From contig JABANN010000136.1 in the NCBI GenBank assembly GCA_013115125.1, positions 1 to 63,504 on the forward strand: a stretch of 63,504 nt of DNA, given 5' to 3'. The notes beneath the pieces were generated by a model. That model saw only the letters and a program-made list of their open reading frames with translations, was not told the origin of the DNA and ran no database searches. Shown here in pieces: positions 11,785 through 61,970 of this stretch; position 1 is the stretch's first letter; every line of letters starts with the position of its first letter. Origin of the DNA: Perkinsus olseni (lineage: Eukaryota). A program made the translations under genes and the position numbers.

Positions 11785-12191
11785 ATTTTCTATTAAAATT
11801 GAAGTAAAAGGCAGTAGCGAGAATCGTTAAGGCATCGGCTCCACGTAGAACACAAAGCATATCTAGCCGCCGTTGTCCCCGAGATATTCCTCTCAGCTTC
11901 TTGTCGTCTTTCGTCATCGATTGCTACTTCCCCGACCTTCAGTCCTCTCTGCTAATATAACGCTGCCCTTAGGTGCAGTCGAGAAGGTTCGATTCCGTCT
12001 GCCGATCATTCTGCAGCGGTTCTGTGGACGGGAATCTCTAGCGCCAATGTCATTAGCTTCAAGATAGGCCGCCTGTGTGAGTCATACCATAATTTAGCTA
12101 ATTCATATTTCGCCGACGCAGTAGCGCGCGCCTGGCTAGTCAGAATGATTCTTTTACACAAGTTAACGCTATTGATCGAGCCATATCAGAT

Positions 12192-13768: not shown

Positions 13769-14142
13769 GATGACAGCTTGCTGAACCAACGAAAGTCTAC
13801 CCTCTAGAAGGAATGTTCGTGCGGCGTGGTGAAGTCGCGGGATGATGTCTCACCGCATAGAGTGGGATGAATTAAGTACTAACGTGATGATGGTTTCTCG
13901 TGCGGGATCAAGCTGCTTAGCGTTGGAGTGCTCATAGGGTCCTCTGTGTTGCATATGCATTTCTATTCGTATCGGGAGGGCGTGCGCGACAAGGGGACCA
14001 CCAAGGTGTGTTGGCTTGTTAGCTTGCTCACACATAAGCAAACAGGTCCTGTGGGTTATACGTATTTGTCGATGGGGTATGCGACATACGTCCCAGAAGT
14101 GGCTGAAGGTAGGTGGGATGGACAACATTGGAGGAGGAGAAA

Positions 14143-14214
14143 AGTCGCTACCCTGATTTGAACCGGGGTTGTCACGGCCACAACGTGACGTCCTAACCAC
14201 TAGACGATAGCGAC
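14143..14214 (-). tRNA. tRNA-His (GTG)
   Basis: GTCGCTATCGTCTAGTGGTTAGGACGTCACGTTGTGGCCGTGACAACCCCGGTTCAAATCAGGGTAGCGAC folds as a cloverleaf with a 7-bp acceptor stem and GTG anticodon, followed by TTTT. Confidence 0.93.
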
Positions 14215-14489
14215 TTGATGTAGCACGTCGAATATAGTGCTCGTGCGTGCAAATCGTTTATATTCTCACTGTTAGACCGTATCTAGCGCCGCATCGAGCA
14301 GATTCGGAAATTTCCGCAGTAAACAAGGCAAGTGGATCTCTCGAGTAGAATGAGTTGATGCGGAAGTGACTTGGTTTGTGAACCCGATGTGACTCTACGA
14401 TTCCGCTCTTCACGTGAGTGTAGTATGATTGCTTTGGCATATGGATAGTCTCGCACTAGTGAGGCTGGGTACAGCAACTCTCACCCCTA

Positions 14490-17400
14490 ATGGTCTATGA
14501 ACTGTTCATAATGAACAGGAGGGGAACAATTTCACCGGTGAAGGGCCTGCGTTTCACTGCTACAATGAAGGCCACGAGCTTCCAGCAGTTTCATGCATTT
14601 CCATGACACACCGTGGCCGGCTGTAGAGCATCCTTCTTACATGCCAGTATCATCCTCATCAGTGGGGCACGGGTTTGGGAGAGTACGGGTCGACCCTACG
14701 GAGACAGGCTATCTTGCGCAGGAGGCCCTAGCTAAACTGAGGACAGCTGCTGTGAGTTAGTGAGCTAGCGCATCGTGTGGGCGTGGTGAATCATCGCACC
14801 TCAGCTTGAGCTCAGCAGCTCCTCAGTGATTAGATTCTGATAAAGCAAGCAGGGATGCAAGCGATGGCTATGAACCAGCAGATTGCCACTGCGGTGAAGC
14901 AGGGGGAGTTGGCTGCCCACGCTGCGAGAGGCCAGGTCTCGTGATGTCAGACATTCAACGTCGAATGATCGTGTGCGTAGGTAGCAGAGCATATAGGAGC
15001 GGTGGGCCCTGGCCAGGCCGGAGGGAGCGCTGAGGGGCTGGCCAGGTATTTTGCGCGTTCTATTCTAACGTTGTTCACTCCCATGGGAAGCCCGGCTTTG
15101 TGAAGCGAGGCGCGCATTGTCTCTCACTGATGGTTCGTGGTTTTTTGCCACCACATCGAACTATGACTTGTTGTCAATGGCCTCTCACTGGAACCTGAGA
15201 GGATACTTAAGAAACAGATGTATCCTCGCTCCGCGATCGCTGTTGTGCTCTTTCTCTTTCCTTCTGTAGTGCGCTACCAGCAGAGCAAGTCCGAGATTTC
15301 TTGAGAGCCCACCAGACGCTGCCGTTCGACTGGTCTCTCCCTCCCCCTTCTACTCCCCATTCCCAGGCTGTTGGTGTGATGCACGTGAGGTCGGACTATG
15401 CCCCTCTAAGTGCCTCTCGGCATCTGGCCTGGCATGGACACGCACGCCATCACCATGGGCTTGACCGATCACATGACCTGCGATGATGCGCTCCCTGTTG
15501 TCTTGTGTTCGAGTCACAAGCTGGGGAGGCTAGCCGGCTTGCTCGCTCGGTTGAGGTTAGCACGGACGTCGTTCAACGAAGCTGAGCTTAGCGTTTTCCA
15601 CTGGTGGATGTTACCTAGGAGTCTTCTAGCAGCCCTCCTCGCTGTGGCTGCTGCTGCTGCTGCTGCATCGGACGACCGAACGGTGGTGGACTTGAGTCAC
15701 GACCCATGGATAGTAACACCCATGCTGGCGGGTGGGCAGTACGGTCTGCCAGAGGAAGCCGTTGATGTACAGGATTCACCGGGGGATCTTGAACTGGTAC
15801 TAGCGAAGCATGCGGATGGAAACAAAAATCTTTAGTGTGCGTTGGAACCCGTCTTTTCTCTGTCGACCTCGGCCAGACCAACGCTGCTTCTAGGGGGGAG
15901 GAGCATTCGCCGCGGGAGGTCGGTCATTGGCCACCGCTGAGGTTTCTAGTGTAAAAATAATCCGAACTGTCGAATGGCTAGCCCGTGCTGTAGCCTTTTC
16001 TTCTCTGTCAGACTCTGCGGAAACTGGAAAGAGAAGTGGACGCAACCGCGCTAAGGGAGGATGTACTAGCTTCTACCGCTCGTATCGCAGGCCTGGGGAT
16101 TCACAGTTTCACCAATGTACAGTCCGTAGCGGAAAAAAGCATAGTGGCCTCAGTTTTACATGTGGCATAGTGGCCTCATGATTGCATGGGGCTTATTTTC
16201 GTTACAGACTCTATGTCGAGGATGCGGGATCGTATCTCAACTGAACCTCTCACGTTCGTACGGATGGCGAAGATTGTTATTACTTCTTATTGTACAGTCA
16301 ACGTGGTCGTATTACTGAGCACCCCTCAGGAAACCTTCGACCGAGATGAATATGCTCAAGCGGAGCCCGACCTCTGCGGTCGAGCATTCGAGCATCTCTT
16401 TAAGAGGAGCCCTGCGTGGGAGACCGCACGGGAGCGAGTAAACAGCGTTGTCAATGAAATCTTCTCCGCACTGGATCAGGGAGGAGGTAGTATGATAGGG
16501 ACGACGTTATCTCCTCATTGCCATCTTGACCGTCGGATTCGGGCAGTGGGACGACTGTGGGAGTATGACTACTCGCTCCGGTCCGGTATGCCTTACTCAA
16601 CCCTAGTTCGTTTTGCTCCTTGGTCGCTGATGGTCGATGGCGAGGTTGAACGGTTCCTGTTGGCAGGGAAGGTAGGGCCGTGCTACTCCATTCTCGGCCT
16701 TCTACTCTCGAGTGCGAGCGTCGACGGGCGGACGGGGGAAGCACTGGTGTCCGATGAGCAGTTGCAGCGGATACTACTTCTAGTACAGGTGATAGTAGAC
16801 CCGCCGTTGGTAGAGGGGTACCTGGTGTTGACGTCAGGACCTTGGAGGGGACGTAGAGCGCCGGAGACTGCCACCGTCGGTCAGGCTCTACCGGAAGGGA
16901 GCGGATATGGGATGTAGTATGGGAGAGGAAAGGGAGGAGGGATTTCGGATACGGCGCGGTAGTAGCGCTAGAATCTGCTTTTCTACTGCAGCGCTGCTGC
17001 AAAGAAACATAGAGAGTAGGAATGCTAGTAGTAGAGAGACCTAATCCTACTTAGAGTAGAGAGTACTAATCCCGCCTTAGGCGGGCTTCGGTTCGCATCG
17101 AACTCTAGTTGATAGGATACGTGTTCAGCATTTCTGTACAGCTGGGGTTCATCGTCCTTCCGCGTAGGTTCCCTCGGTTCCTTAGCGTTGGTGTCCTCGA
17201 CCAGACTGGGGTATCCGGCAGCAGGCTCATCAGTAGTTTCTCTAGCAACTCAACAGCCCCCGGCCGTTGTAGCTGTCCTTAATGGCGAGTCCGAGGGGTC
17301 GGAAGGTGGTGGTGAGGAGTGTATGGAGATGGCGGCCCTGGTAGCAGTCATTCATTGCCATTGTGGCTGCGTATCATCGCATTGGGCCGGCCGAATCGTG

Positions 17401-21329: not shown

Positions 21330-22171
21330 CCGAGACTTTTGTACCAGAATAATCGAGTCTTTTGCTGTTTCAACTGCTGTCGCATTGGAGAACTTGTGTT
21401 GTGTGTCACATCCTATTCGGCGTCTGCTGATAACAGAGCCTCTCATGAGTCAATGAAAGTCGACTGTTTGCTACTGTATGATAGCGGCCGCGAGAGTGAT
21501 GGAGGATAACGATCCATAAAAGAAATGAGGTCGGCAGTTCGATAGATGGGCGTTTCGCCCAATATTGGACCATACCGGTTTGCCGGGCCAATCCGTGTGA
21601 TATAACAGTAGTGATCATAGGCTGGCTCTGTTAGAATCTCACGGTCAGCGCAGGTTGTTGTTGGCTTCATCGAAGCTAGGCGTAGCATCGTTCTCCGTGA
21701 ACCGATCACAACCTCGAACATCCCAAATTCCTTTTGAGCTGTCAGGCGTCCACCCAGGGTAGCCGGAGCTTGTCGACATCGCTACCCTTGCTGTTGCATA
21801 CGCGCCCAATAGTAGGCACGAGACACAGACTTTGAACGACAGTGTCCGCTTGCAAGCCGCTTCGTCATATCCAAGCGAACTTAAACCAACTTGCCGAAGG
21901 CGCACCATGTGAGGGCAACTTTCTCCAAGATTCTCGGAGGTGTCTCATTGGAAGGATGACTCGGGAGATCTTTCGGTTTCTGGTGGGAAACTGACACTAC
22001 GAAACGGTTCTCCTTTTGCTCGCCTGTTACGGTTTCATCTTCAGCGCCAGATTTCGTGATGATAGGATCTCGTTCATGTTTCTCAAGATTCGAGAATGTT
22101 GTCCCGCAACCGATTCAATTTCGATTCTACGAGGTCTCATCTTCAGCTTGTTCGTCTTGTTAGCCACGTCC

Positions 22172-29134: not shown

Positions 29135-29718
29135 TTTACGCCGAGTTAATGCTGCTAGTCGTGAAACGCAGTCTCATTCCAGGCGAGCGCGTCGAGCTTT
29201 CGGCGAACAGAGAATTACTGGAAATTGTGGAGACCGTACGGCGCTTACGGTGGTGACGCCCCTGTAGGCCAGCGTTTATGATTGACATAATGCAATAGGC
29301 ATGGTCATACGAGCGGCTACCTTCAACAGCCTCGTTACTGTCATCTGCTGGCCTCATCGTGTCGTTGACTGCCTTCACTGCAGCACAGATACTCCTTTGT
29401 AACAACTCTTGTGCCAATCTCAGCGCTGTACGTTACACTACGTGACAGAGGTCTGCTAGAGTACTGAGTGCTAACTGGGAATATCGTTCTCCTGGGATGC
29501 GTAATTATTAGTGTCACAACGGATTTCTTCGCGTTAGTATTGATGATGACCATTCTGAGTTGCGTGTGCGTGCCTTGTGCAACGGTCCACAAGCGGGCTT
29601 GGGCAGGCACCGGTGTGCCTTGACAGGGATTGGCGTATGTGCGTTTATCGAACCAGAAACGTAGCTGTCATTCGAACGAGTATTGTCTTCTTGTCTCAGT
29701 GTATTTTCTTGAGTGGTA

Positions 29719-31632
29719 ATGTCGTCAGTATCGCCGTCCGTCAACAACAAGAGTAGTAATGGCGTCACTGTGACCACCGATGACTGCAGCAGCAGCGGGG
29801 ACCTGGTGTCCTGTCCTGGTGGGGTGTGCTCTATGCGACGACGATCGACGCAGGGTACTGATACGTCTATCGGGAGCAGCTCTGATGCAGCAAGCCCCCA
29901 TCAGAAGTTCGAACAGTCCGTGTCGCACGAGCGGGCATATCGAGCGCTGAAAAGGGAGAATCAGCCCGGCAGTCTGTTTGTTAGGGGCCGCCAGACTTTG
30001 ATAATCGACAGGAGGGACAAGAGCCGACATGGGCCGGAGAAGCTTCTGAAGGAGTACGAGTTGCAGAGGGTGATTGGTAATGGCTCTCAGGGGTCGGTGT
30101 GTGAAGCGGTTTGTCGTGCTACGGGTGACCACCGCGCCATAAAAATAATCCCAAAATGTGATGCTGTCCTCACGGGTGGGACGTGCAGTCTCGAAGAAAT
30201 CTCCATAGTCAATCGGCAGATGAAACGGGAGGTCGGCGCCATGGGTCGCCTCGACCATCCCAATATTTGTAAACTTTACGAGATCTACGAAGACAGTATG
30301 TCCTTCTATTTGGTCATGGAACTTTGCCGAGGTCCTGAGCTCACCGACTACCTCCTCAAGGAGCGCTACCTTTCCGAACCCGAAGCTGCCCGGATCCTCA
30401 GAGGTCTTCTTTCCGCCGTCAATTACTGCCACAGCAAGGGTATAATCCACCGGGATATTAAACCTGAGAATATCCTCTTCTCGACGCCCAACGTGAAGTC
30501 TCCAGTCAAACTCATCGATTTTGGCTTCAGCGCCCGGGTCTTTCAGAACTCCTGTGCACTGGGCTGCGATGAAGAGCATTCCCGCGAGATCGATCTGGGT
30601 ACTCGGAAAGTGTCACGGTTCGAGCTTCGGTACTGCGGTCTCCCCAAGTTTGACGCCGTCAAGGCTCAGCGGGAGGCCGTCAACAGCATCCCGCCAGGTG
30701 GAATCTCCCTGGTCAATGACTTCGGCAAGGGCGCTCAGAAGCTGCACGGTCTGGTCGGGACGCCCTACTACGTAGCGCCGGATATCATCGCTGGCCATCA
30801 GCATCACACCGGAATGGATATGTGGAGCCTCGGGGTTCTTTTGTTTGTACTGCTAGGCGGTTATCCGCCCTTCCGAGGAGCCACTACTGGGGAGGTGCTG
30901 GAGTCCATAACGAAGAGTCAGGGCGTGGAGTTCCCGGAAAAATGGTGGGGTGGTGTTTCGGAAGAGGCCAAGGATCTGATAAGACGGCTGATGGAGAGGG
31001 ACTGCAGCAAGCGGCTGACGGCGGCGGAGGCCTGGGAGCATCCCTGGATGAAAAGATACCGCCCGAATAGCGAGCTGGTCCATCTCAGTCCGGAGACCTT
31101 CGAGACCTTTGTCCATGCCAGCAAGTTGCGGAAGGTGGCAGTGAACGCCATCGCCTACAATCTGTCGGTCTGCAGCTGTGCCGAATGGATTCGGGAGATT
31201 TATCGGACCTTCGAAGCCCTCGATGTCACAGGATCGGGCACGATAACACTACCGGAGTTCCGCAGTGCTATGAAGAAGGCAAGGCCCGAAATGGGAGAGG
31301 CTAAGATCGACGAGCTCTTCGCGGGCATCGACACGGACGCCAGCGACGAGATCGACTATACAGAATTCCTTGCCGCTGCGATTTCCCAGGTTACCTTCTC
31401 CCGCATCGATCTGTGCAAGAAGGCGTTTAGGATCCTCGACCGGAAGCAGGATGGGAAGATTTCTTCCGATGAGTTGAGGCAGATCATGGGTATCACCCAA
31501 CGGGACGACTTGGACGAGGAGTCGGTGGCGGAGGTCATTCGGGAGTTCGACACCAACGGTGACGGCTTTATTGATTTTCAAGAGTTCCTTTCGATGATGC
31601 AATCGTACGATGTTGGCTCTTCTACGCCCTGA
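29719..31632 (+). CDS. CDPK: Calcium-dependent protein kinase (kinase + 4 EF hands), intronless
   Basis: GNGSQGSV, AIK, HRDIKPENILF, DFG, GTPYYVAPD, DMWSLGV. EF hands DVTGSGTITLPE, DTDASDEIDYTE, DRKQDGKISSDE, DTNGDGFIDFQE. Confidence 0.97.
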   Translation: MSSVSPSVNNKSSNGVTVTTDDCSSSGDLVSCPGGVCSMRRRSTQGTDTSIGSSSDAASPHQKFEQSVSHERAYRALKRENQPGSLFVRGRQTLIIDRRDKSRHGPEKLLKEYELQRVIGNGSQGSVCEAVCRATGDHRAIKIIPKCDAVLTGGTCSLEEISIVNRQMKREVGAMGRLDHPNICKLYEIYEDSMSFYLVMELCRGPELTDYLLKERYLSEPEAARILRGLLSAVNYCHSKGIIHRDIKPENILFSTPNVKSPVKLIDFGFSARVFQNSCALGCDEEHSREIDLGTRKVSRFELRYCGLPKFDAVKAQREAVNSIPPGGISLVNDFGKGAQKLHGLVGTPYYVAPDIIAGHQHHTGMDMWSLGVLLFVLLGGYPPFRGATTGEVLESITKSQGVEFPEKWWGGVSEEAKDLIRRLMERDCSKRLTAAEAWEHPWMKRYRPNSELVHLSPETFETFVHASKLRKVAVNAIAYNLSVCSCAEWIREIYRTFEALDVTGSGTITLPEFRSAMKKARPEMGEAKIDELFAGIDTDASDEIDYTEFLAAAISQVTFSRIDLCKKAFRILDRKQDGKISSDELRQIMGITQRDDLDEESVAEVIREFDTNGDGFIDFQEFLSMMQSYDVGSSTP

Positions 31633-31728: not shown

Positions 31729-31753
31729 TCATCATCATCATCATCATCATCAC
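31729..31753. repeat. (TCA)n microsatellite
   Basis: Run of TCA triplets just downstream of the CDPK stop. Confidence 0.9.
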
Positions 31754-32254
31754 CAGTATAATATTTCTGTAAACTCAGCCATATGTTTGCCACATGGAAA
31801 CGCCTAGTGTTTATTAGTGTGCTCAGTTGACGGCTATTAGTCGGAAGGCAGAATCTCAAGCTTCAGAACGATGAAGGCGGTTGTTGCTCCGCAGTCGTGC
31901 CTCGAAGGGTTTGAAGGGTTTGACTTGCCTCGATGCCAGACACTGAAGGTAGTGGCTCAATCTTGGATACACCACTACGATCAAACCCAGATAGAATTAC
32001 TAACGCGAAGATAGACCTCGCACAGAAGTGAATACCTCCCACTGCAGGCAGTCTATGGACAGTTTGATTATTGGGTCGATCCATCTCGAAATCCGATCTC
32101 GGAATCGCACAGAGCCCCTTCTGTTGACTGATAAGTATACTAGGATCTCCCACTCTGCTGCGACAAGTTCGCTTTCCCATAGGCTCACTTCGGAACTCGG
32201 GATGGTTGTATTGCGTAGAAACGTGTGGGCAGTGATAAGGTTGGAGATACGTTG

Positions 32255-34487
32255 TCACTTGAGTTGCCGTAGAACGGGCTTCTGCTTCTCGCCGACCTTG
32301 GGCCTGCTGCCCGGCTTCGAGTTCTTCACTCTGTTAGCCTCCTTCCTCTTCTGAGCCTCGTCCATGACGTTCATCTTATCTTGACGAAGCTTGATAGCCT
32401 TCGGGAGGTGTTTGTGACTGCACGGAGGAAGGTCCCCGGTTCGAACCCTGGTGACGACATCTTACTTCGCAATTCGCCTTATCTCTGGCATATGCTTGTA
32501 CTTCGCGACCAGCTTCTTGCGATATGCTTGAGCCTTCTTCTCCCGCTTGCTCACGACGCCCAACTTATCCGAAGCCTGCCCATGTAACACGACGGTAAGC
32601 GCAGGTTCGATCCCCGGCCCCACCATCTACTTCATTTTTCCACACCCGAATATTGCAGTCCTCCGAACCGCTGAAAACGAATCGTCCATCACCACTGTAC
32701 TGACAGCAGAGGACTCTTTGCATTCGCTTCGTATGATACACCTGAGCGTTGAGGAAATGCAAGACGAGCAAGTGGCCAACAAGACCACCGACCTCTCTCG
32801 AACGTTGGGTCTCATAATTGAAGATCCTGATGGTCTTGTCGTAGCCAGCCGAGACCAGCTCCTCTCCGGTCGGGCTATAGTCCAGATCCAGTACTGCCCT
32901 CACGTGCCCCTTATGGATGAATACCGCAGAATCCAGTTTTCTGACACCTCTAGCTGTTCAAGTATCACGCGACCAGTGACACTACCTCATATCGAAAGTG
33001 TACAAATTGCCGTCCTCGTTGGCTACACTGAAGCGCAGCGGCTGGCGAGGATTCCAACAGAAGGCGTTGCTTCGGTTTCGAAGGACCACCTGTAAAGACG
33101 ACCGCTTCAAAAATTGCAGGACATCTAGACGAGGACCATGGAACTAATTGCCTTGCCAGAATTCATCCACTGCTGCTGATAAGTTTTATTGAACGAGAGA
33201 ATTGTTCATTTCCGTTCAATTAATCATTTACTGATGGGATTAATAATGAAACAAGAATGGGAATTAATTCTTGGGAATTAATAATGAATTAGTCATTATT
33301 GATTTTTACTGGGGGAAAAAGGGGAGACTATCACCCAAGGAAGCATTCATCGACGGTTCAAAGACGTACTTCTCAAAATCGGAGAGCCGGAGGTTCGCTC
33401 TCTGACATCCCTCGGCACTTTCAAAAGACCCTCCCCCCTTTAGTCAGCCCATAGTACCTTCCTCAAACCGCTCTGCATGCGGACATCGAAGAGCCCAATA
33501 GAGTTGTCCATGGCGGTAGTACCGAGAAGACACTCTTCGCAGGGATTGAACTTAACACTTAGAGTAGCCTCAGTGCCCCACTCGTAGGTGGAGAGAGGAG
33601 TAGTCCTGCAAGGACGGTACAGCGATGGTGGTGGTGACCGAGATAGTACCGGTTGTAATCCCAGATGTCCACAGTCTCTCCGGCAGTGGCAAGCATGGAG
33701 ATCTTACCCCAATGAGCATCGATCGAGGATAGCATGGAAGACTGACATGAGCGAGCTTCGCCAGACTCAATGGACGGCGACGGCTATTACCGAGTTGAGT
33801 ACGTGTACAGGGGCGATCTGGTCGTTGTGGAGGGAGGCTGAGGAGCCCGATTGTAGAGCCCCCACGGTACTGAACTTCTCATCAAGCATCTCCCCAACAG
33901 CCTCGTCCGGGTCGAATCTTAGATCAAAGCCTGCAGTTCCCGATACCATCCCTTCCGTTACTACTTCCACAATTTAATGGTCTTATCCTCGCCGGCGCTG
34001 ACGACTAGGGAATCATCGCTGGTCGTGCACAAACCGCGGACGAAGCCTTCGTGAGCTCTCACTGCCTTGAAGCACCTCCGCTGCCCGACATTCCAGAATC
34101 GAATCTGAAGGAATAGTTCTCTCAGACAGACCCCCAGGGCGTTCTGAGCACCTCGCCATCGCAGCTTCCAGTGAATAAGGGCGCTATAACGGTCCTGCAT
34201 CGGGTCATGCACTTAACGGCATCTGTGTGGCCTTCCAGAGCACATAGGAACGGCTTGGCGAACATTTTTTGGATCTTCGCTCCGTTCAAGGCCCGAGTGT
34301 ACCTGTAGTGGTACGCGCCTCCTAAGATTCGTGGTCACTAAGCCTGCCCTTCGGCAACCCTTCATTACTCTGTAGCCCGGTCGAAGGGGTGCAGAACAGG
34401 ATCCGCATTGCGCTGGTATTTTTGGATGCCTCCTGGCTTGGTTATGGTATACTCGGAAGGATCTCGATGTAGAATCTTGACCTTCAT
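32255..34487 (-). CDS. DCAF13: DDB1- and CUL4-associated factor 13 / U3 snoRNP protein Sof1 (multi-exon)
   Basis: MKVKILHRDPSEY..QRNADPVLHPFDRATEYTRALNGAKIQKMFAKPFLCALEGH; AVLDLDYSPTGEELVSAGYDKTIRIF; YHTKRMQRV; SGSEDCNIRVWK; Sof1 C-terminal domain EIRRIANHKHLPK. Confidence 0.96.
32418..32465 (+). other. tRNA(Val)-like 3' half filling a 48-nt SOF1 intron in antisense
   Basis: The + strand reads CACGGAGGAAGGTCCCCGGTTCGAACCCTGGTGACGACA (variable loop AGGTC, T-arm, 7-nt acceptor strand + A). The - strand intron is GTAAG...TGCAG. Confidence 0.8.
32576..32630 (+). other. tRNA-like 3' half filling a 55-nt SOF1 intron in antisense
   Basis: The + strand reads TGTAACACGACGGTAAGCGCAGGTTCGATCCCCGGCCCCACCA. 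The - strand intron is GTAGA...GGCAG. Confidence 0.72.
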
Positions 34488-39233: not shown

Positions 39234-40340
39234 ATGTTCTCTGGTCCAATCTACTACCACCGCACTCACGGCGATGGCTCTCACCCGTCTCACGGCGGCT
39301 ACGGGGCCGACCATCTCCAGGAGGAAACTCTGTCGTCGCAGTACTCTATGAAGTACGGTTGGAGTATCATTGATGATGTTAAGGTGAGCAGGCGCTGTGT
39401 GCATGCGTGCGGCTTTTGATACCAACTTTTCACCAGATTTCCACATTCATCGGACACACGTTGTCCGGGTCCCGGACAGGGACCATCTGTGTTAACACCG
39501 CCGAACCTCGTACAATGCTTTTCGAAGGTCGGCGATTCGGAATAGGTGAGCGGCATGCGGGAGGCGCCATCCCTCCGCTCAATAGCTATGGGTTGGGATC
39601 TTCGGATGGTACCGGGTAGTGATAAGTTAGGACTGAGAACTAGACTGCGACGTGAGGCTTTCGTGCCTCATAACGCCGCCAGCGGTATCTTCGTACCCTA
39701 CATACTTCTGAGAGGTCATAGTGCGCTAGAATGGGAATGGGCATCAGTAGCGGTTTCGATTCATGAGGGATGCTTGTCTATTGCGGAGGTGGGTGTTGAT
39801 GTTGCTGCCAGGTCCAGAGGACTACGTGCGCGTAGTGGTTGGGAGGTTCGATGCCTGTGCGGCCGACTATCTTCCAGCCGTTTTGTCACGTACTAGATAC
39901 TCGGACCGAAGGTCTACCATTATAAATGTAATAATCACGTTCAGTGTTATGCTGCTGCGATTAAGCTGCGTTTCGATTTGTGGATGGAGTGGTATGAATC
40001 TGGATGCGTATACTCGAATCCCGCGATAGAGCGTTCTAGCGATTATCCCCGGCCATACGTGCTGTGTCGTCGTTCTCTCGCTGTATGCTCTCGAGCGAGC
40101 GTACTAGAGCGACTTCGAAATGGCGGGTCCGAGCCACCTGTGGTTCAAGAGAAGATTATCATTGCTAGCTATATTCAGGTACCGTCCCATACTGAGACGG
40201 CCGACTTGTGCCGTATCATTACTTGGGCTAAGCTTTCAATGGGGAATAACTATAATCCCAAAGAGGAGGAGGAAGAGGAAGGGAGTGACGACATCTCTGG
40301 TGGTGCTGCTGAGGTCGCCGATGAGATCTACAATGCGTAA
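39234..40340 (+). CDS. Hypothetical protein, divergent paralog of 37501-38773 (multi-exon)
   Basis: MFSGPIYYHRTHG..WSIIDDVK/ISTFIGHTLSGSRTGTICVNTAEPRTMLFEGRRFGI/G..; acidic C-terminus ..EEEEEEGSDD..DEIYNA*. Confidence 0.62.
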
Positions 40341-50900: not shown

Positions 50901-52967
50901 TAACTCGCAGAGGTACACCAATGCAAGAAGCTTGGCGAAGAGCGCTCGCCATATTGATCGATAAGGCTCGGAAGTGGGCCGCAGAACAGCTTTATACCTA
51001 CTTCATCGACTCCCTTGACCTCAAGGTGGGTCCTTGGGCATGGTGAAGGCGCGTGCTGTGGGGTCACTCAGGGTCGACTGTCATCGATCCACTCCCACTT
51101 CCTGTTGGCCCGGAGTGACTGGTTGTCGCACTTCCTCGATTCTGCGGGCGAGGAGCTCGAGACGCAGCTGGTGGACTCCATCGACATGAACAGGATTAAC
51201 ACTTTACTCGACTTTGCTATACGCTCTAACGTCAGCAGTAAGTCGGGCGGAGCGGAGCAGCCAGGGTTACGCGTTCTGGACAGGCACGCATGCAGATCCT
51301 TATTGTGGAGAGATGGTCGCCTGTATGCACACTTTCCTTACCGAAGAGACACCTAGGAAGTGAGGCTATCTAGTTTTGGTTATCATTAGACGACATCATG
51401 ACAGGCTCGCCTCGAGGAGCTACACTCCCTACACCATAGTACAGCGGAGCAGCACTGATGCCTCGAGGGCACCGACGGGCATACGGTAGGGAGCTGCTTA
51501 TCATTGTGCTTGCCGTGGAGTAGGAGTGTCCATCTGAATCAACCCACTGGCAACCGAATGATTGGGAAACTGATCATGTGGGTGCGTCGCTACGACAATA
51601 GCCGTTTTCATTGTCTAACCTATACCGAGACTCAAAATCGTTCCTCAAAATTTATGCAAATTACGTTCATGATACAGTTGCAGAATGGCTTTCAAAGGAT
51701 TAGTTCACTGAGTATCCCTCACTATGGTTGCAGGCAGAATCACCACGTCCCCCCCGCAGGTGCTTCACGTTGGGATTACGTGAAGTGAAGTGGCCGTTGT
51801 CGCTCATCCTGTCAACCGCCGCTGTCTTCAAGCTTCAAGTCATCTTTCGGCATCTCTGTTATTGCCGGTGAGGCGTATCTCGTCGGGATGGTTGTTCATG
51901 TCTTTGGTAGGTGGGTGCAGAACCGGCTATCACAAGTATGGCTCGACTTCCAGTCTACTAAGCCCTTCTACTCTCCCGGACGTGACACTGAAGGTGGAGG
52001 CGGCTCCCAGCTAGAGACACTCTGTTTCTGTTGAAGGTCTTCAAGCTGTCTTTGACTCATCGGTGCTACTCTGCCGAATGAAGCAATTCGTGACGAACTA
52101 CGTCTACTACGCGACCACCGAGGTCATCCAACCGCGGTTCGAAACGTAGGCGGCCTTGGGCCTCAGCGCCCAGGAGATGAGGACGGTGATGGACTCCATC
52201 AGATGGAGGGGCCCGCTGGCTCAGGTTCCTGCAGATGCTCGAGTCTCCGAGTGATAGACACAACGGCGATGTCTCTCCTGAGGCCTCGTCTCTCGAAATG
52301 GTCATGTCGAGCTTCCAACACCTTCTGGATACCTTGCTGAGGGTGAGTTGTTAAAGTATTGTGAATCGGAACTGAGCCTGTCAGGAGATGTTGTTGACCT
52401 CGGAGTCGGTGTCGTTGTATAAGTACCTCGCAAAGATGCTCTCGACCTGCTCCCTATATGCCAAGCACATGGGCAGCTTCAGTATCGGTGACGCTGGTGA
52501 GTTGGCATGGGTTGGCTGATGACTCCTCGTGGCCGCTCTGGGCCTCACTGAGCATACGGGAGTCGGTTACTTCTTAAAGGTTGGTACAAAAACGTTAACC
52601 CACAGTGTCGATGAGGTCCTCGTCACTCCAGGGCGGGGAACCCTCTGGAGGCATCACTTGGATAACGACCAACGCGGAATAGTTCGGGAGAATTTCGAAG
52701 AGGATATTCATACTCGGCCGTCGCCACACCTCGCTCTGGCCTATCAGAAAGTCGATTATTGGCACATCCTTATCAGGTATCGGGAAGGGTCGTGACGACA
52801 GCAGCTACTACGACGCGAGCTTCATACTGGGTGACTCTAGTGTGGGGAGGTCAGCTCGTGACAGTCGGCTGGATGTGAGAGCTCACGGGGAAAACCACTC
52901 CCGACGAACAGCCATGCACTGCGCACCGGGTTCTCAGAGACAGAGCACTTCTTCATTTTTCCCATGA
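47984..52967 (+). CDS. TUBGCP2: Gamma-tubulin complex component, GCP2/Spc97-like (multi-exon)
   Basis: LILEILGAMLG; CDISLQQVAAQILPI; FWNDRFMI..PFFI..KILEAG; LSSIHSHFLLARSDWLSHFLDSAGEEL; FTLDYEVKWPLSLILSTAAVFKLQVIFRHLCYCR; MKQFVTNYVYYATTEVIQPRF (GRIP1/GRIP2 motifs). Both ends are approximate. Confidence 0.85.
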
Positions 52968-54760
52968 CAGCATGAAGCGTGCATTACGCATATACTCTTA
53001 GCATTTCGGGTCGCCGTTCGCTTGAGCCGCTCTAAGAAGGTCTCACAGGCTCATTCGAAACCCAAGGAATTTATTGGAAATCGTAACAATTGACGCGGTA
53101 CGGTCAACTTTCGATATGTTGTTATGGTGGCATGAGCTCAGCGGCGCAGCACCACGCTGGTCCTGATCACATTTCGTACCATACGAGAGGCGCGTTGATG
53201 GCTACAAATTGCCTTCCTCAGGCCACACGAGAGCATTATGTTAACAAAGTATCAGCGAAACATTACAAGGCCATGATCGATAAATTCCGGTAGGCTCCTC
53301 CAACCTTTCTTTGGCGAGTGCATGCTGGTCTTGGCCTTTGCTCGTGTTTCTTCAGTGATACGTTCGACTCTCACCTCAAGGGGTTCCTGGGAGCACTTCA
53401 AAACCGTACAGCGGAGCGAGGCAGCGCTGGCGGGGCCTATGTTCAGAATTTGGCCCATCGATTAGACTACAATGAGTTCTACACGAAAATGTGAGTTCAA
53501 CTGGATGCTCGTTGCAGGCCCTTTCTCTGCGCATTTCACAGCCTTTGGGTGTTCGGGCGTCTAATGCTCATTTGGTCCGTAGGTACGGTTTCGATGTCAC
53601 TGAAAACTGGGGTACATGAATTAAACTCCTCGGAGGAAGCATGGAAGAAGTTGCATCAGTTTCAGCTGTTTTGGCCTCGTGTTGTAAGAGTGATAAGTCT
53701 CTTGGCACATAGTTATCTCGGGCGGCGATACTATGGTTCACATCTGATAGTCTTAATTGGTCGTCTGGGTTGAGTACCCATGCCCTAATTAAGAGACTAG
53801 TATCGCGTTTACTGTAGTTGGACTTTTTAGCACTGTTCACTTCGTTCCAAGTGGCATTGAGTTGTCAGAAGGAGGGACATCAGAGTGCACAGATGGGAGG
53901 GGCTCGGAGACAGAGAAGCAGAATCGATCATTCAGAAGTCTATTCGACTTAGGGTGAGGCGGTCGCTATGCCGGTGGCCGTCATCACGCTAGCGAGTAAA
54001 GACAGCAGTTTGGCGTTGTTAGGATGGTCGAAATATGTACGTACAACGAGGTGGCGGAATGGAGAGGTCGGTGGAGTGGCGGGTCCGGTCGGGAGTTCAA
54101 TTTCGCCAATAGGGCTCCCGGTTTTAGGACTAGGGAAGAGAATTTTGCCTTCAAGAGCATCTGTATTGGGGACGTCTTCGCGGTAACTGGCCGCTGTAAT
54201 GGCGCCTTAACGTCATTTTCCATCCTTCCACCTCGATCGATCATCGGGGCGCGCCCTTGAGGAAGCCCCGGTTCCCTCGAGCGGCTCGTTTTTCCAAATT
54301 ATGGAGCTGCCACCCTTACCTGGCATGCTCTCATTCGGGGTTCCTCCGCCACGCTTGGTGGGATGCCGTCACAGATACACGCCCCTCGCCGAGGGGCCCT
54401 TGGCTATTCAATACTTAGCGCCCCGGCTGGCCTTCTCCATTGCGCCTGATGTGGACCACAAACTATCCCGCAAACTCGGACTCTGCCTCCTTTCGGGTGT
54501 ATCCAAGAGGGGCTAGGAAGATCCTGGAAAGCTGGACGTATCGACGGAAAGAACTACGCGCTACAGAGGCGTAGTGACGGTTTACCTGATTCCCTCTCCC
54601 CGAGAGAAGAAAGGGAATCTTCCTCCGCCCCCCCATTCGATGCATTACGCAGCTTCTGTGCAGCGCAGACTTCGTTAACGAATTCGGCTAGCGTGAACGC
54701 ATTCTGGATTAGGGCTCAACCCTGTCGAGGAGTAATGATCTAGCTTTGAACCACTCTTCA

Positions 54761-55735
54761 ATGGCCTCCGCGAATGCGTGTCGATGCGTCGCCTTAGTGA
54801 GTATCCTATTGATACATTTCTCCGAGGCTACCAACTTCAGACAACAGGAATTGCTGTATGGAAGAGCCCACGGTGATGGAGCGGAGTATGTTTTCGTAGC
54901 AAGAGACAAAGTCCCCATCAGCGACATCAGCACGGCTCATCGATTACAACTAACCAGGCATGACGCAGACTTTTTCGGAAAAGTCAGGTGTCAAGCCAGT
55001 GGGGATCAGCTAGAGTGGACTGTGTTGCATACAATTAGTCTTCCACTGCACAACTCCTGGCAGAGTAATCATGATGTTGTGACCAAGGCCAGGATTTACC
55101 GTCTGAAAGATGGTGAGACTTCGGAGTACATTGCTGACGTCGTTAAAGGCGAAAGATGCTTCGATAACGTTCGTGAAAGGAAGAATTCTGATAGCGAGGA
55201 AAAGTACGAGGCCGCACCAGAGAGCATCGAACGCGAGTTGCATCTGATCTGCCTGGGCGGCTTCTCTGCACTTCATCCCATCACTGACTTGTCGGTGCTG
55301 GATGGCAATTACACCGGTACCAGGCAGGGAAGGGAATCCTGGTTCGATTTTAACAAGGGTAAGGTTAGGGACGCGAAGCTCACTGTGAAGGAGATCGACA
55401 CGATGCATTTTAATGTAATTCACTACCCGCTTTGCGATGGAGTGATACTTGCCGAAGTGGCAGGGTGGATGGCGTCCATCGAGAAACCACCTTCCTATTC
55501 GCTTTTGAGAAGATCAAAGGTTCAGAGGCAACAGGGCTGGAGTTTTGCTTCGCGGAGAAGGAGACGTCAAAGAGCCGCCGCCCCTGGTGATGAAGGGGCT
55601 GGTCTACTAGACGATGATGATGAGTCGAACGCGCTCTGCAGGGCTAAGCATGTGAGAAGAAGGCTCAGTCACGATGTCCTCTACAACTGGGACTGTCACT
55701 TGCCCAATGACTTCATGCTGAAAGTACGGGTTTAG
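54761..55735 (+). CDS. Secreted family protein, copy 1 (intronless, intact)
   Basis: Signal-peptide-like MASANACRCVALVSILLIHFSEA; family motifs FRQQELLYGR, AAPESIERELHLICL, DGNYTG, YPLCDGVIL, GAGLLDDDDESN, WDCHL. Confidence 0.88.
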   Translation: MASANACRCVALVSILLIHFSEATNFRQQELLYGRAHGDGAEYVFVARDKVPISDISTAHRLQLTRHDADFFGKVRCQASGDQLEWTVLHTISLPLHNSWQSNHDVVTKARIYRLKDGETSEYIADVVKGERCFDNVRERKNSDSEEKYEAAPESIERELHLICLGGFSALHPITDLSVLDGNYTGTRQGRESWFDFNKGKVRDAKLTVKEIDTMHFNVIHYPLCDGVILAEVAGWMASIEKPPSYSLLRRSKVQRQQGWSFASRRRRRQRAAAPGDEGAGLLDDDDESNALCRAKHVRRRLSHDVLYNWDCHLPNDFMLKVRV

Positions 55736-57314
55736 CCTTATATTGGAATTGTGTCACAATTTTTGTGCCTGTGGATAGTCCCGCATGATGGTACCGCGGA
55801 GGATAATAAGCCTCCTGATAATTTCGAGTACGTATAAGTTGATCCAGTTTATTTTTGTATCTTGATCGTGAAGCATCATTGTTTATCGTTGAATGAGAGG
55901 ATTTGTGCGCGTAGGTTGGCTGTTATTAGAGCTGCGTTCACAGTCTAGAACCACTTCTTGTTTGGGGAGGTCTTAGCCGTTTGCCCCCCACCTGGTGAGA
56001 ACTAGGGAGGCCTTCTGAGTACCCGCAAAGCATGACCCTGGGAGCGAAAGGCTTTTGAACTACGAATCCATGCACTCAGTAGGCTACCTACTGTATGCAC
56101 TGCACTTCACTGAGAATCATAGTGAGTGTTTATCTATGAGAGTATGTTACAATTTCATTACCGAGAAATCACACATCTCGTTCTGCACAGGCGGCCTGTG
56201 AGAGGCTGAAAGAACAATGGCGAAGCCTCGCAGAATAGGAGAAATACTCGAAAAGTGATCGGCAAGTTTCAACCTTCCGGCCAGCTTTCATTCTCGTTAC
56301 TATTGGGCTAGAAGGGCAAACATGGTCTGCTGTCTTCTACTTGGACCATCGCATGATGTTCCGCATAGGAGTTTCAGAGTGCTTCGCATCTGTCGGGCAT
56401 GCCATGGCCCGGACGAGGGTCAATGGTACAGTGGCAGCTCGAGCGCTTTCGTTCTGTACGCCTTTGACTCAAAAAGGTTCCAGTCGTATGGTCGCAACTC
56501 GCACAATGTTAACTCGGTTCACGAAACTATTTTGATGGGAGCCGCTACGCAGGTTGTATTAAATGAACGAAACACCCAATATAGACCTGGTAACCGTACT
56601 ATAGGAGTACGATGGAGGACGAACGTAACAGATCGTACTACAGCAATACAGCAGCGACTAATACGTCAATGCAACTAGCGCTAGAGCGACAGCAGAACCG
56701 TGCACAAAGACAACAGTAGCACAGTCGAATCTCATCATCTTGCTGCCTTAGCGACTCTCTACTTCATGCCGAAACCGGCACACCGCTAGGGGTTGACACG
56801 GCAGAAGACTTCACCATTCAAAAGTCTATTCGGTTCAGGGTGAGGCGGCCGCTATGCCGGTGGCGGTCGAGGATATCATATGAGCGAGTAAAGGCAGCAG
56901 TTTGACGTTAGGGTCGAAATAGGGGCATCCAACGAGTTGGCGAGTAGAGAGGGCAGCTTAGTGGCGGGCCCAACAGGGAGTTCAATTGAGCCAAAAACCT
57001 CTCAGTTCCGTGACTAGTTCATAATTGAGAAAGACAATCCCCCTAGCGACGGCGATCTCGTGCTTCGGTATGCTGGAATTGTGCGTCCACGATACTCCCC
57101 TTGCTTCCACTTCGATCGATCATCGGGGTGCGTCCTTTGAGTTGAGGAATCACCGGCTCCCTCGAGCGCCTTGGATTTCCTGAAATTCCCCTCTCTATGC
57201 ATCACGCAGCTTCTGTGATCCTCAAGATACGCTAGACGGATCCGGCTAGCGTGAACGCATGCAACCTCAAGATGCGTTGATAACGAAGGACGATCTAGCT
57301 GCGAACCTTCTTCC

Positions 57315-58304
57315 ATGGCCTCCTCGAATCTCCTCTTCAACAGTACATTCCGGCGCGTCACCTTGATGAGTATTCTGCTGGTATACTTCACCGGGGCCAC
57401 ACAGTTCAGACAGCAAGAGCTGCTGTATGGACGGGTACACGGTGTCGGAGCGGAGTACTTTTTTATACCGAGAGACGAAGTCCCCATCCCCGACATCGCC
57501 ACTGCTCATCGACTCTACCTAACTGACCATTACGCTCTCTTCGAAGGGAAGGTGAGGAGCCAAGCGAGGAGGGATCAGCCTGACTGGACAGATTTGGACA
57601 CAATGAGTTTCCCGCTGCACAACTCCTGGCAGAGTAATCATGACGTTGTGACCAAGGCTAGGATTTACCGTCTGAAAGATGGCGGAACTTTGGAGTACAT
57701 TGCTGACGTCGTTAAAGGCGAAAGATGCTTCGATAACGTTCGTCAAAGGAAGGATTCTGATAGCGAGGAAAAGTACGAGGCCGCACCAGAGAGCATCGAA
57801 CGCGAGTTGCATCTGATCTGCCTGAGCGGCTTCTCTGCACTTCATCCCATCACTGACTTATCGGTGCTGGATGGTAATTACACCGGCAGCCGGCAGGGAA
57901 GGGAATCCTGGTTCGAATTCCGTAAGGGTAAAGTTGCAGACGCGAAACTCACAGTAAAACATATCGACAAGGATTTTTTCTGTGCGATCTACTACCCGCT
58001 TTGCGATGGAGTGATACTTATCGAAGCGCCCGGGTGGCGGAAGTCTATCGAGTAATCGATTCACTATTCGATTCTGAAGAAATCGAAAGTCCAGACACAA
58101 CGGGGCTGGAGACTTGCTTCGTGGCGGAGGAAGAGTAAGAGAAAATTCTCGAGTGGTGAAGAAGGAGCTGGTCTGCTCGACGATGATGACGAGTCGAATG
58201 TGATTTGCGGTGCTAAGGACGTGAGAAGGCGGCTCACCCGTGATACCCTCGATAAATGGGACTGTCATTTGTCCGATGACTTCGCGCTCAAAGTACGTAT
58301 ATAG
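57315..58304 (+). pseudogene. Secreted family protein, copy 2, with premature TAA at 58053-58055
   Basis: GAG TAA TCG here versus GAG AAA TCG in copy 3. The homologous frame stays open to TAG at 58302-58304. Confidence 0.85.
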
Positions 58305-59908
58305 ACGGGCAGAGAGACTTGTTAATCCTGTAGATTTCTGTGCTTACAAAACGTTGTTTGAAGTGAAAGAGACGACGTTATGGAGGATGAACCTGACGAG
58401 AATAATAAGCCTTATAGCAATGTCTAATACGTAAAAGTTCTCTCTCTTTTCTTAGTATGTTGATCGTGAAGCATTGCCGTTCATCGTGGAGTCAAAACGT
58501 TTGTGCGCGAAGGTTATCTGTCATTCATCTGGGCTGCGTTCAGTGATACGTGTCGCGGCGACACTGTCGCCGTACAACTCGAACTAGATGCGCAACACAA
58601 ACCGTGGGTAAGCTGGACAGTAATAGTTGTAGCGTAGGACGATCGGACCTCGAGTCAAGGAGGCTCGAACCGCAAACTGAATGCAAACTCTGAATGATCT
58701 TCCAACGTCTACCAAATCCAGGGAAACCTCAAGCTTAGGGGCACGCAAGTACATAGCTTGAGCGAGGCGAACCGTTGTACCAATACAAAGGCGAGCGAAG
58801 GTAACACGAGTTCCTTCCACTCACGGTCGACTCCCATCCCAAGGGATTCTTGGAAGCACTTTGAAATCGAACAGCGGAGCGGGGCAGCGCTGGCGGGGCC
58901 TATGCTCAGAATCTGGCCCATCGATTAGACTAAAACGAGTTTTACTCGAAAATGTGAGCTAAACTGGATGGACGTTGCAGATCCTCTCTCTGCGCATTTC
59001 ACAGCATTCAATCTTGGGTGTTCTCGAGTGTGGTGTTCGCTCTCGCAGGTGCGGTTTTGGCGTCACTAACAACTAGGGTACATGAACCAAACTCTTCGAG
59101 GAAAGCATTGCAGAATCAGTTACATTTGTCTTATCTCGTGTTGTAAGAGTGCACCGATGGGAGCCGCTAAGGGTTGACACGGCAAAAGACTTCACCATTC
59201 AAACATCTATTCGGTCTAGGGTGAGGCGGCCGCTATGCCGGCGGTGGTCGAGGATATCGTATGAGCGAGTAAAGGCAGCAGTTTGACGTTAGGGTTGAAA
59301 TAGGGACATCCAACGAGTTGGCGAGTACAGAGGGCAGCTTAGTGGCGGGCCCAACAGCGGGTTCAATTGAGCCAAGAAGGCTCCCGTTTTATGATTAAGG
59401 AAGACAATCTCGCCTTAAAAGACGCCAATCTCGTGCATGTCAATTCCTCCTGCTTCCACTTCGATCGATCATCGGGGTGTGCCCTTCGAGTTGAAGAAGC
59501 ACGGGCTCCCTCGAGCGGCTTGCATTTCCCTGGTTGCTCCTCTCTTGGAGGTGTCGCTCTTCCTTAGGATTTGGCATCCCTCATTACTCGCGGTGAGATG
59601 CAGTCACAAGAGGGGCCAAGAAGCTCCTTGAAAGCTGAACGCGTCGACAGACGATCAGCGACGTAGCAATAGTTCATCCGATTCTTCTCTCCCTTCCCGT
59701 TCGATGCATGACGCAGCTTCTGTGCTCGGTGAGATGCGCTTGACGAATAAGGCCAGCGTGAATGCAGGTGAATGATGATTGAGTCCTAAGACTTACATTT
59801 GCATGCGTTCACGCTACCCTAATTGAGGCTAGTTAGCTCGATAAGGCTCTTAACCCCGTCAACGATGCGTTGACAATGAATCTTGACCTGGTTTTGAACC
59901 CTTCTTCA

Positions 59909-60898
59909 ATGGCCTCCTCGAATCTCCTCTTCAACAGTACATTCCGGCGCGTCACCTTGATGAGTATTCTGCTGGTATACTTCACCGGGGCCACACAGTT
60001 CAGACAGCAAGAACTGCTGTATGGACGGGTACACGGTGTCGGAGCGGAGTACTTTTTTATACCGAGAGACGAAGTCCCCATCCCCGACATCGCCACTGCT
60101 CATCGACTCTACCTAACTGACCATTACGCTCTCTTCGAAGGGAAGGTGAGGAGCCAAGCGAGGAGGGATCAGCCGGACTGGACAGAGTTGACAACAATAA
60201 GTTTTCCACTGCACAACTCCTGGCAATATAATCATGACGTTGTCACCAAGGCCAGGATTTACCGTTTGAAAGATGGTGAAACTTCGGAGTACACTGCTGA
60301 CGTCGTTAAAGGCAAAAGATGCTTCGATAACGTTCGTGAAAGGAAGGATTCTGATGACGACGAAGAGTACGAGGCCGCACCAGAGAGCATCGAACGCGAG
60401 TTGCATCTGATCTGCCTGGGCGGCTTCTCTGCACTTCATCCCAGCACTGACTTGTCGGTGCTGGATGGTAATTACACCGGCAGCCGGCAGGGGAGGGAGT
60501 CCTGGTTCGAATTCCGTAAGGGTAGAGTTAGAGACGCGAAGCTCACTGTAGAAGAGGTATACAAGGAGCATCTCCACGCAATTTACTACCCGCTCTGCGA
60601 TGGGGTGATACTTATCGAAGCGCCTGGGTGGCGCAAGTCAATTGAGAAATCGCCTTCTTATTCAATTCTGAAGAAATCGAAAGTCCAGAAGCAACGAGGC
60701 TGGAGTCTTGCTTCGTGGCGGAGGAGAAGGAGTACGAGGAACTCCTCGCCTGGCGAAGGGGCTGGTCTGCTCGACGATGATGACGAGTCGAACGTGATCT
60801 GCGGTGCTAATCATGTGAGAAGACGCCTTACCCGTGATATCCTCGATAGATGGGACTGTCACTTGTCCAATGACTTCGGGCTCAAAGCACGGGTGTAG
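59909..60898 (+). CDS. Secreted family protein, copy 3 (intronless, intact)
   Basis: MASSNLLFNSTFRRVTLMSILLVYFTGA signal-like N-terminus. Full-length homology to copy 1. Confidence 0.88.
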   Translation: MASSNLLFNSTFRRVTLMSILLVYFTGATQFRQQELLYGRVHGVGAEYFFIPRDEVPIPDIATAHRLYLTDHYALFEGKVRSQARRDQPDWTELTTISFPLHNSWQYNHDVVTKARIYRLKDGETSEYTADVVKGKRCFDNVRERKDSDDDEEYEAAPESIERELHLICLGGFSALHPSTDLSVLDGNYTGSRQGRESWFEFRKGRVRDAKLTVEEVYKEHLHAIYYPLCDGVILIEAPGWRKSIEKSPSYSILKKSKVQKQRGWSLASWRRRRSTRNSSPGEGAGLLDDDDESNVICGANHVRRRLTRDILDRWDCHLSNDFGLKARV

Positions 60899-61970
60899 AC
60901 GAGCAGGAAGGACACTTGTTAATCCTGTAGATTTCTGTGCTTGCAAAACGCTGTTCGAAGTGAGAGAGACGAGTCGTCGTGGAAGATGATCCCAATGAGA
61001 ATAAGAAGCTTGCCGGTTATCTCAGATGTGTATAAGTTCGTTCCCCTTTCCTAGCATGTTGATCGTGAAGCATCATTGTTTATCGTTGAATGTAAGCGTT
61101 TGTGCGCGGAGGTTATCATTCAATCATCTGGGCTGCGTTCACAGTCCGGAACCATGTATTGCTCAAGGAAACCTTGGACTCACACACCCTTGCACTTGGC
61201 CGGTGAGAGCCGTTGTAATTGGCCTTCTTGAACTACGCCCGAAGCAAGCGCCTAGGGCGGAGGAGACGCCTATTTGGCCTTGGGTGAGGCGGCCGCTCTG
61301 CCAGCGGTCGAGGATATCACATTAGCGAGTAAAGACAACAGTTTGGCGCTAAGGTCGAAGTAGGGGCCGCCAACGAGTTGGCGAATGAAGAGGACAGTTT
61401 AGCGGCGAGCTCAACGGGGAGTCATGTTCAGCCAAAAATGCTCCCAGATTCATGATCAAGAGACATCAATCTCGGGGATGCTGCCCCGGGATAACCCCTG
61501 GAATCGTGCCTCCACGACATTTCCTATGCTTCCACTTCGATCGATCGCTGGGGTGCGCCCTTCGGGTTAAATAAGCACCAGCCCACTCGAGCGGCTCGGA
61601 TTTCCACGGACTACTCCCCTCTTGAGGCTGCCGCTCCTGCTTAAAATTCGGGATCCCTCATCATGCTCGGTGAGGTGCAGTCATAAGAGAGGCCAAGAGG
61701 TTCCTTGGAAGCGAGACGTGTCGACAGAAAGGACTGCGCGCAGCACCGGCGTAGTCCGAATCTTCCCTCCCTTCAACCACACAGCTCCTGTGCTCGTTGA
61801 GATACGCTGGACGAACGAGGCTAACGTGAACGCATGCAAGATTGAGTCTCAAGAGTTAATCTTGCATGGGTTCACGGTAGAAAATTGAGACAAGTTAGCT
61901 AGTTGGGGCTCTTAAGCCCGTCAAGGATGCGTTGACAACGAACCATGATCTAGCTTCGAACCCTTCTTTA

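Follow-up and report, generated by a model that had tools for sequence, protein, structure and literature searches.

Two adjacent introns of a Perkinsus olseni SOF1-type gene share an antisense T-arm-like element at the same distance from the splice donor

We investigated two neighboring introns of a SOF1/DCAF13-type ribosome-assembly gene (32255–34487, minus strand) in a 63,504-nt stretch of the genome of Perkinsus olseni, an alveolate that parasitizes molluscs (GenBank assembly GCA_013115125.1, contig JABANN010000136.1, positions 1 to 63,504; hereafter, the window). The introns of this gene are numbered from its 3′ end, so that intron 1 is the last and intron 2 the second to last. On the strand antisense to the gene, both introns carry an element resembling the T arm (B box) of a transfer RNA (tRNA), followed at identical spacing by the complement of the splice donor. 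This arrangement is real and not random. Reading it as tRNA works well for intron 1 and poorly for intron 2, and the evidence comes from two cases (n = 2), which makes it interesting but unproven. We tentatively favor, with somewhat less than even confidence, the explanation that these are short, constitutively spliced introns whose bodies are largely DNA copied, in antisense, from the 3′ portions of tRNA genes or primary tRNA transcripts, with no present function needed.

Both introns are genuine spliceosomal U2-type GT–AG introns. The gene encodes WD40 repeats and a Sof1 domain in 11 exons separated by 10 introns (470 aa), and its coding sequence, which runs from the ATG at 34487 to the stop at 32255–32257, forms an open frame after splicing. 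Intron 1 (32418–32465, minus strand; 48 nt, GTAAGA...GTGCAG, phase 2) can be cut in only one way, and the cut of intron 2 (32576–32630, minus strand; 55 nt, GTAGAT...GGGCAG, phase 0) is ambiguous by 1 nt. In each of the three RNA runs (X7, X8, and X12; 3/3), a single contig contained ten skips, including 32418–32465 and 32576–32630. All ten read CT..AC on the plus strand, that is, GT..AG for the gene, and their excision leaves a single open frame of 470 codons. The 110-nt exon between introns 1 and 2 (32466–32575, minus strand) encodes the first half of the Sof1 domain (Pfam PF04158; profile positions 3–38, E = 2e-13), the last exon matches profile positions 40–87 (E = 6.7e-11), and Pfam places WD40 repeats in the upstream exons. 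In an alignment of the spliced protein, the junctions of introns 1 and 2 were free of gaps against all nine homologues compared (9/9). An earlier reading of the window from its letters (hereafter, the sequence-only reading) had placed introns at exactly these coordinates and proposed RNA-seq as a check of both junctions; the exact skips in three runs, together with the restored frame and homologue alignment, bear it out, and the contigs of X7, X8, and X12 splice at the claimed borders.

The introns of this gene are 44–66 nt long, except for the 368-nt intron 5, and the majority of P. olseni introns are shorter than 100 bp according to PMC3101222. Eight of the ten donors (32418–34368) begin with GTA, the other two with GTC and GTG, and G occupies position +5 in 2/10; the acceptor is CAG in nine introns and AAG in one. 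The extended donor consensus is weak in this gene.

The tRNA-like anatomy is read on the plus strand. In intron 1, the segment resembling a tRNA 3′ half (32430–32459) consists of a variable-loop-like AGGTC (32430–32434), CCCGG (32435–32439), the loop TTCGAAC (32440–32446), CCTGG (32447–32451), 7 nt (32452–32458), and a discriminator-like A (32459), directly after which stands TCTTAC (32460–32465), the complement of the donor GTAAGA. The T-arm/B-box-like segment of intron 2 (32601–32625) contains an exact GGTTCGATCC and comprises GCAGG (32601–32605), the loop TTCGATC (32606–32612), CCCGG (32613–32617), 7 nt (32618–32624), and A (32625), followed by TCTAC (32626–32630), the complement of the donor GTAGA. 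The succession of a heptamer, 13 nt ending in A, and the donor complement TCT(T)AC is spaced identically in the two introns, and both carry the T-loop consensus (G53 T54 T55 C56 R57 A58 ... C61) with 5 + 7 + 1 nt to the discriminator. A shared antisense element of this type at identical donor spacing, as the sequence-only reading proposed, can thus be read in both introns. The T arms that it described held up in part: the loops and the spacing are present, whereas the stems are imperfect, with 4/5 pairs in intron 1 and 3/5 in intron 2. A real tRNA-His in the window, called by ARAGORN at 14142–14215 (minus strand), also has a mismatch, G–A, in its T stem.

On the plus strand, both introns open with CTGC, which in antisense becomes the GCAG acceptor. 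Without TCTTAC, intron 1 measures exactly 42 nt, which equals the span of positions 32–73 in a tRNA whose variable loop has 5 nt. Introns 1 and 2 coincide where tRNAs have bases in common, namely, the T loop, the stem ends, and the last two bases, and only 2/7 bases of the acceptor part are identical, in keeping with the earlier claim that the acceptor strands differ as they would between two different tRNAs. This pattern of agreement and difference would fit two different tRNA sources, or selection on the B box alone.

We assessed the tRNA likeness with three covariance models searched over the window: R1, built from introns 1 and 2 themselves; R2, a 3′-half model from the window's two real tRNAs (tRNA-Cys and tRNA-His) only; and R3, a model of 36 distinct tRNA 3′ halves from two bacterial genomes, none of which fits the pattern used in the prokaryote search described below. 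With R2, intron 1 was the best non-self hit among 12 matches, aligned over the full model length (19.4 bits, E = 0.014). R3 placed the real tRNA-Cys at the top (32.1 bits), intron 1 next (22.0 bits, E = 0.0016), and 15493–15527 third (18.3 bits, E = 0.016), with the real tRNA-His in fifth place (11.7 bits). The best non-self match of R1 was the real tRNA-Cys 3′ end in register, which was weak (13.4 bits, E = 0.23); tRNA-His ranked 14th of 26. Intron 1 is therefore credibly like a tRNA 3′ half, judging from these scores. A preliminary generic tRNA set (8 sequences from the prokaryote-scan loci) was dropped because it was biased by the search pattern.

Several results weigh against the tRNA reading. 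Neither R2 nor R3 picked up intron 2 at E up to 10, its T stem has 3/5 pairs, and what it has in common with intron 1 is limited to the decamer, the spacing, and the two final bases. The Rfam tRNA model (RF00005) was silent on both introns at E up to 10 with truncated matches allowed, and no Rfam family was found at E up to 10 over 32000–33000. In the truncated mode, the control halves gave 17.1 bits (E = 0.07) for the real tRNA-Cys and no match for the real tRNA-His, which means that this test overlooks real halves. Intron 2 gave a weak Rfam match to the 3′ end of transfer-messenger RNA (6.4 bits, E = 0.15), in which a 3-nt deletion was needed to reach CCA. The third-ranked R3 match, 15493–15527, is not a tRNA, so that the margin of intron 1 is about 4 bits. 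Numbered as a tRNA from position 32, both introns have C at position 37, which is normally a purine in tRNAs. As plain sequences, introns 1 and 2 are similar with z = 3.0, a value reached by 6/300 shuffles and obtained among 72 comparisons; their best local alignment is a 14-nt motif. Finally, a tRNA with either acceptor strand was not found in the window, in the Joint Genome Institute (JGI) metagenomes, or among the prokaryotic matches listed. Overall, the claim of antisense tRNA 3′ halves is credible for intron 1, where R2 and R3 give significant scores, and weak for intron 2, where neither does.

The search for a source tRNA covered these three places. The only tRNAs that ARAGORN called in the window, tRNA-His and tRNA-Cys, match neither intron; they have TTCAAAT loops and other acceptor strands. 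In the tRNA-Cys gene, the discriminator is followed by CTTTT, similar to the TCTT that follows the A in intron 1 (TCT in intron 2). For the JGI metagenomes, the pattern consisted of the T arm and acceptor of intron 1 with the two mismatched stem positions left free; the 17 loci that matched it all lay outside ARAGORN tRNAs, in contigs of 56–73% G+C. For prokaryotes, a degenerate pattern spanning both introns was searched in one genome per species, and the exact 22-mer of neither intron was among the at least 120 matches listed. One string made up 111 of the 120 listed, 86 of these 111 being in tRNA-Tyr genes of Streptomyces and relatives, a result that says no more than that intron 1 has a normal tRNA T arm in its T-arm half. 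Intron 1 may resemble a valine tRNA, and intron 2 may resemble serine tRNAs; none of our readings draws on this likeness.

Two further stretches of the window resemble a T arm. The segment at 15493–15527 (plus strand) has a perfect 5-bp stem and a TTCGAGT loop, follows an ATG in an open frame, and is not a tRNA according to Rfam; its R3 score serves as a measure of the level that a false positive can reach. At 11972–12015 (plus strand), a 44-nt GT...AG stretch with no long open reading frames (ORFs) around it contains the sense T-arm-like GAAGG TTCGATT CCGTC (R3, 10.3 bits); it could be an intron of an untranslated region or a tRNA remnant. ARAGORN at default settings called neither of the two SOF1 intron segments. 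Under relaxed settings, it made 48 (ps80) or 189 (ps70) "tRNA" calls across the window, including one that ends at 32461; we regard these calls as noise and did not use them.

The sequence-only reading left it open whether tRNA-templated sequence had created the introns or filled existing ones, and the age of the two positions bears on this choice. A protein search with the read-through ORF 32568–32957 (minus strand) listed 120 homologous fragments, many of them ORFs on genomic contigs of other eukaryotes; there were no Perkinsus fragments among them, and the best identity was 53%. Among the 117 fragments that hold the motif preceding the intron 2 site, 111 continue with homologous residues and the other 6 stop within six residues after the motif. 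Since 111/117 read through, the intron 2 position is not widespread. About 30 of the fragments lose homology roughly ten codons beyond the site, which marks them as genomic, with an intron at that point rather than at the site itself. Homology continues across the intron 1 site in 43 fragments, and two fragments from other eukaryotes (P0209 and P0214) lose homology exactly at residue 416/417 and continue with 31–62 unrelated residues. An intron therefore probably exists at the intron 1 site in another lineage, so that refilling of an old intron is as likely as gain. Intron 1 may sit at an old position, which would count against gain and fit refilling better. In short, gain is doubtful for intron 1, and refilling is compatible with what we see.

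Under our favored explanation, the captured fragment would span roughly from the anticodon loop through the discriminator and into the first few bases of the trailer, and it would have entered either a break or an intron that was already there. In antisense, it would be a nearly ready mini-intron of the length usual in this organism (44–66 nt in SOF1). The complement of "A73 plus TCT(T)" would supply the A-rich donor part GTA(A)GA-T, and the complement of CTG at the other end of the fragment would supply the CAG acceptor. If only that orientation and register were spliced cleanly, only such insertions would survive, which would produce the identical geometry of the two introns. In this scheme, we infer that intron 2 derives from a tRNA, and we likewise infer which molecule was the source (gene or cDNA) and how it was captured. 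No sign of a present function was seen in the sense RNAs, which are not unusually structured and match no RNA family. Their folding gave z = +1.48 for intron 1 and −1.34 for intron 2, with the other introns of the gene between −1.5 and +0.3, and neither of the two forms a stable hairpin that beats shuffles, as a mirtron or an intron-hosted structured small RNA would.

A broader version of this explanation, which we consider doubtful, holds that the antisense 3′ part of a tRNA gene is in general a pre-adapted mini-intron and that tRNA-derived DNA or cDNA creates or refills introns in Perkinsus, the two SOF1 introns being independent products of two tRNAs. The complement of tRNA positions 32–34 (C-U-G) would give CAG, the discriminator and U-rich polymerase III trailer, once complemented, would give the A-rich context after GT, and the 42–50 nt in between would satisfy the minimal intron length of the organism. 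PMC3101222 reports signs that, in Perkinsus, mRNAs have been reverse-transcribed and reinserted into the genome.

An alternative is that the introns are members of short dispersed repeat families, or hold pieces of them, whose copies would spread as units with their own splice sites and whose consensus would include the B-box-like core; such families could be introner-like elements or a tRNA-derived short interspersed nuclear element (SINE) or miniature inverted-repeat transposable element (MITE). We consider this unlikely, and its main support is also the main unexplained observation of this study, namely, matches in the DNA run X1. There, 28 other records match at the locus, 26 of them only in part. 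The stretch 32432–32457 is matched within a 26.7-kb contig, and 32602–32629 within a 13.5-kb contig, where the match runs through ATCTA into the donor complement of intron 2. The stretch 32740–32772 (intron 3) recurs in several records, including 31-nt unitigs with depths of 195 and 280, against about 80–95 for long contigs (2–3 times the single-copy level), and the summed depth is also raised at about 32937–32957 (intron 4). The matching pieces of introns 3 and 4 include the acceptor and 2–4 exon bases, and an RNA-run contig starts at each of 32745 and 32937, preceded by unrelated sequence. Judging from these pieces, the last four introns of the gene have short stretches in common with other parts of the genome, which is hardly true of the upstream introns. 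In addition, the related alveolate lineage Amoebophrya has repeated introner elements, as described in PMC7789003.

On the other hand, the X1 pieces are only 20–31 nt long and have discordant flanks (agreement 0.5–0.6), and the tool cautions that matches this short frequently stem from repeats or from the DNA of other organisms. Three joints in X1 (32449–32740, 32625–32938, and 32764–32938) had sides of 20–21 nt, below the reliability mark of the tool, and were not interpreted. None of these four introns has a second copy in the 63.5-kb window, and a self-BLAST of nine of the ten introns against it (the 368-nt one left out) gave no match longer than 16 nt; the best matches, 21641–21656 and 40285–40296, are not relatives of the introns. 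The borders of introns 1 and 2 show neither terminal inverted repeats nor clear target duplications (direct repeats of 0 and 1 nt, respectively), and the two introns differ everywhere outside the tRNA-conserved positions.

We also think it improbable that the likeness is a coincidence between two GC-rich introns with TTCGA-centered near-palindromes, in which case the score of intron 1 would be a false positive of a short model. The R3 score of the non-tRNA segment 15493–15527, the silence of the Rfam tRNA model, and the 48 noise calls of relaxed ARAGORN speak for it. So does an excess of T-arm-like hairpins: a looser T-arm pattern has 7 sites in the window against 0.89 in shuffles, and only two of them are real tRNAs, the others being intron 1 and four further sites. 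Against coincidence, the decamer GGTTCGAWCC occurs at only two loci in the 63.5 kb, and these are introns 1 and 2; it gives 3 matches, as the palindromic copy counts on both strands, compared with a mean of 0.29 in shuffles, 2/100 of which reach 3. The exact decamer is thus found nowhere else in the 127 kb of both strands. Its presence twice on the same strand of adjacent introns at the same donor offset would, by our estimate, have a chance of about 1e-6 or less, which makes chance implausible. Moreover, intron 1 was the top non-tRNA match of two independent models, in full register.

Attempts to put the motif against a wider background gave little. The pattern GNNTYGAAC with GT 12–23 nt upstream had 36 matches, among which only introns 1 and 2 are proven introns, the other GT-bearing matches being unchecked; several matches with GT in range fall in a tandem family at 55–63 kb, and the match at 39854 (minus strand) has a different register, in a place where the genes are apparently on the opposite strand. 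An ab initio intron census of the window, intended as a denominator, was rejected because the codon bias was too weak, recovering 5/10, 3/9, and then 1 of the known introns.

Least probable, and in our view very unlikely, is that the decamer is kept by selection as a TFIIIC-bound B box ("extra TFIIIC" site) or as a structural or binding motif of the intron RNA, its origin being secondary. In its favor, both introns preserve all 10 nt of the B-box consensus, and 2/5 pairs of the flanking stem are broken in intron 2; a 9+4-bp hairpin (−19.7 kcal/mol) is also possible in the sense RNA of this intron, with three G–U pairs that are mismatches on the other strand. Against it, this hairpin is insignificant (z = −1.3, equaled by 25/200 shuffles), intron 1 folds worse than shuffles (z = +1.5), no A box is demonstrable, and protein binding would not explain why the distance to the donor is fixed at 13 nt.

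Other features of the gene and its surroundings were recorded. Intron 3 (32742–32792, minus strand; 51 nt, donor GTCGGT) is in frame and free of stops, so its retention would add 17 residues. Intron 5 (33090–33457, minus strand; 368 nt) is seven times as long as its neighbors and contains an A+T-rich block at about 33180–33310 in which AATTAAT/AATAATGA words recur; this intron may hold or be an inserted element. An unspliced RNA-run contig of low depth spans 33154–33485. Convergent with SOF1 lies a calcium-dependent protein kinase gene with a kinase domain and EF hands (29716–31629, plus strand), a single uninterrupted ORF whose product is 95% identical to a P. olseni protein, 89% to one of P. 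marinus, and 80% to one of P. chesapeaki. The spacer between the two genes contains a run of CAT repeats (31730–31760). At about 52000–63000 (plus strand), four to five tandem paralogous units follow each other at intervals of about 2.6 kb, with long near-identical stretches (for example, at about 55341, 57910, 60504, and 62567).

The origin of new spliceosomal introns is a long-standing question, to which transposon-like introners and filler DNA at repaired breaks are the main answers so far. If our favored explanation is true, antisense ends of tRNA genes that form part of the splice donor would be a new and mechanistically explicit source of introns; if the arrangement is confined to introns 1 and 2, it is a curiosity. 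With the 3′ half of a tRNA and its B box, the introns share GGTTCGANNCC, a loop of 7 nt followed by 13 nt up to an A, and, in intron 1, the variable-loop-like AGGTC, whereas they lack the 5′ half, the D arm, and the anticodon stem and have imperfect stems. The primer-binding sites of long terminal repeat (LTR) elements likewise present the complement of a tRNA 3′ end on the sense strand of a transcript, but they start with TGG and span 18 nt, whereas the likeness in intron 1 extends over about 30 nt. This analogy, drawn in the sequence-only reading, has to be abandoned: neither intron has a CCA/TGG register compatible with its T loop (13 nt, then TCT), and the introns are therefore not primer-binding sites. 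Extra-TFIIIC sites of yeasts, which are largely intergenic and are recognized as such by their binding of TFIIIC, share with the SOF1 introns an isolated B-box consensus without a tRNA gene.

Introners and other transposon-derived introns of Micromonas, Aureococcus, fungi, and Amoebophrya resemble the present case in being introns of outside origin that are precisely spliced, as set out in parts of PMC7789003 and PMC11282704. No tRNA-derived introner appears in the tRNA- or SINE-related passages of the introner review (PMC11282704). Introners form multi-copy families with inverted and direct repeats, whereas the SOF1 case consists of two introns that are dissimilar outside the tRNA-conserved positions, with no repeats seen at their borders; the short X1 pieces only hint at their copy number in the genome. 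Membership in an introner family is doubtful, as the window holds no copies and no terminal repeats were seen. At the level of abstracts, we found no description of antisense tRNA halves serving as introns. Intron gain from filler DNA at repaired double-strand breaks is known in Daphnia and others, and there, too, short foreign DNA enters a coding sequence and survives by being spliced out. The SOF1 introns would differ in that their source would be putative tRNA genes or transcripts, captured always in antisense and in one register.

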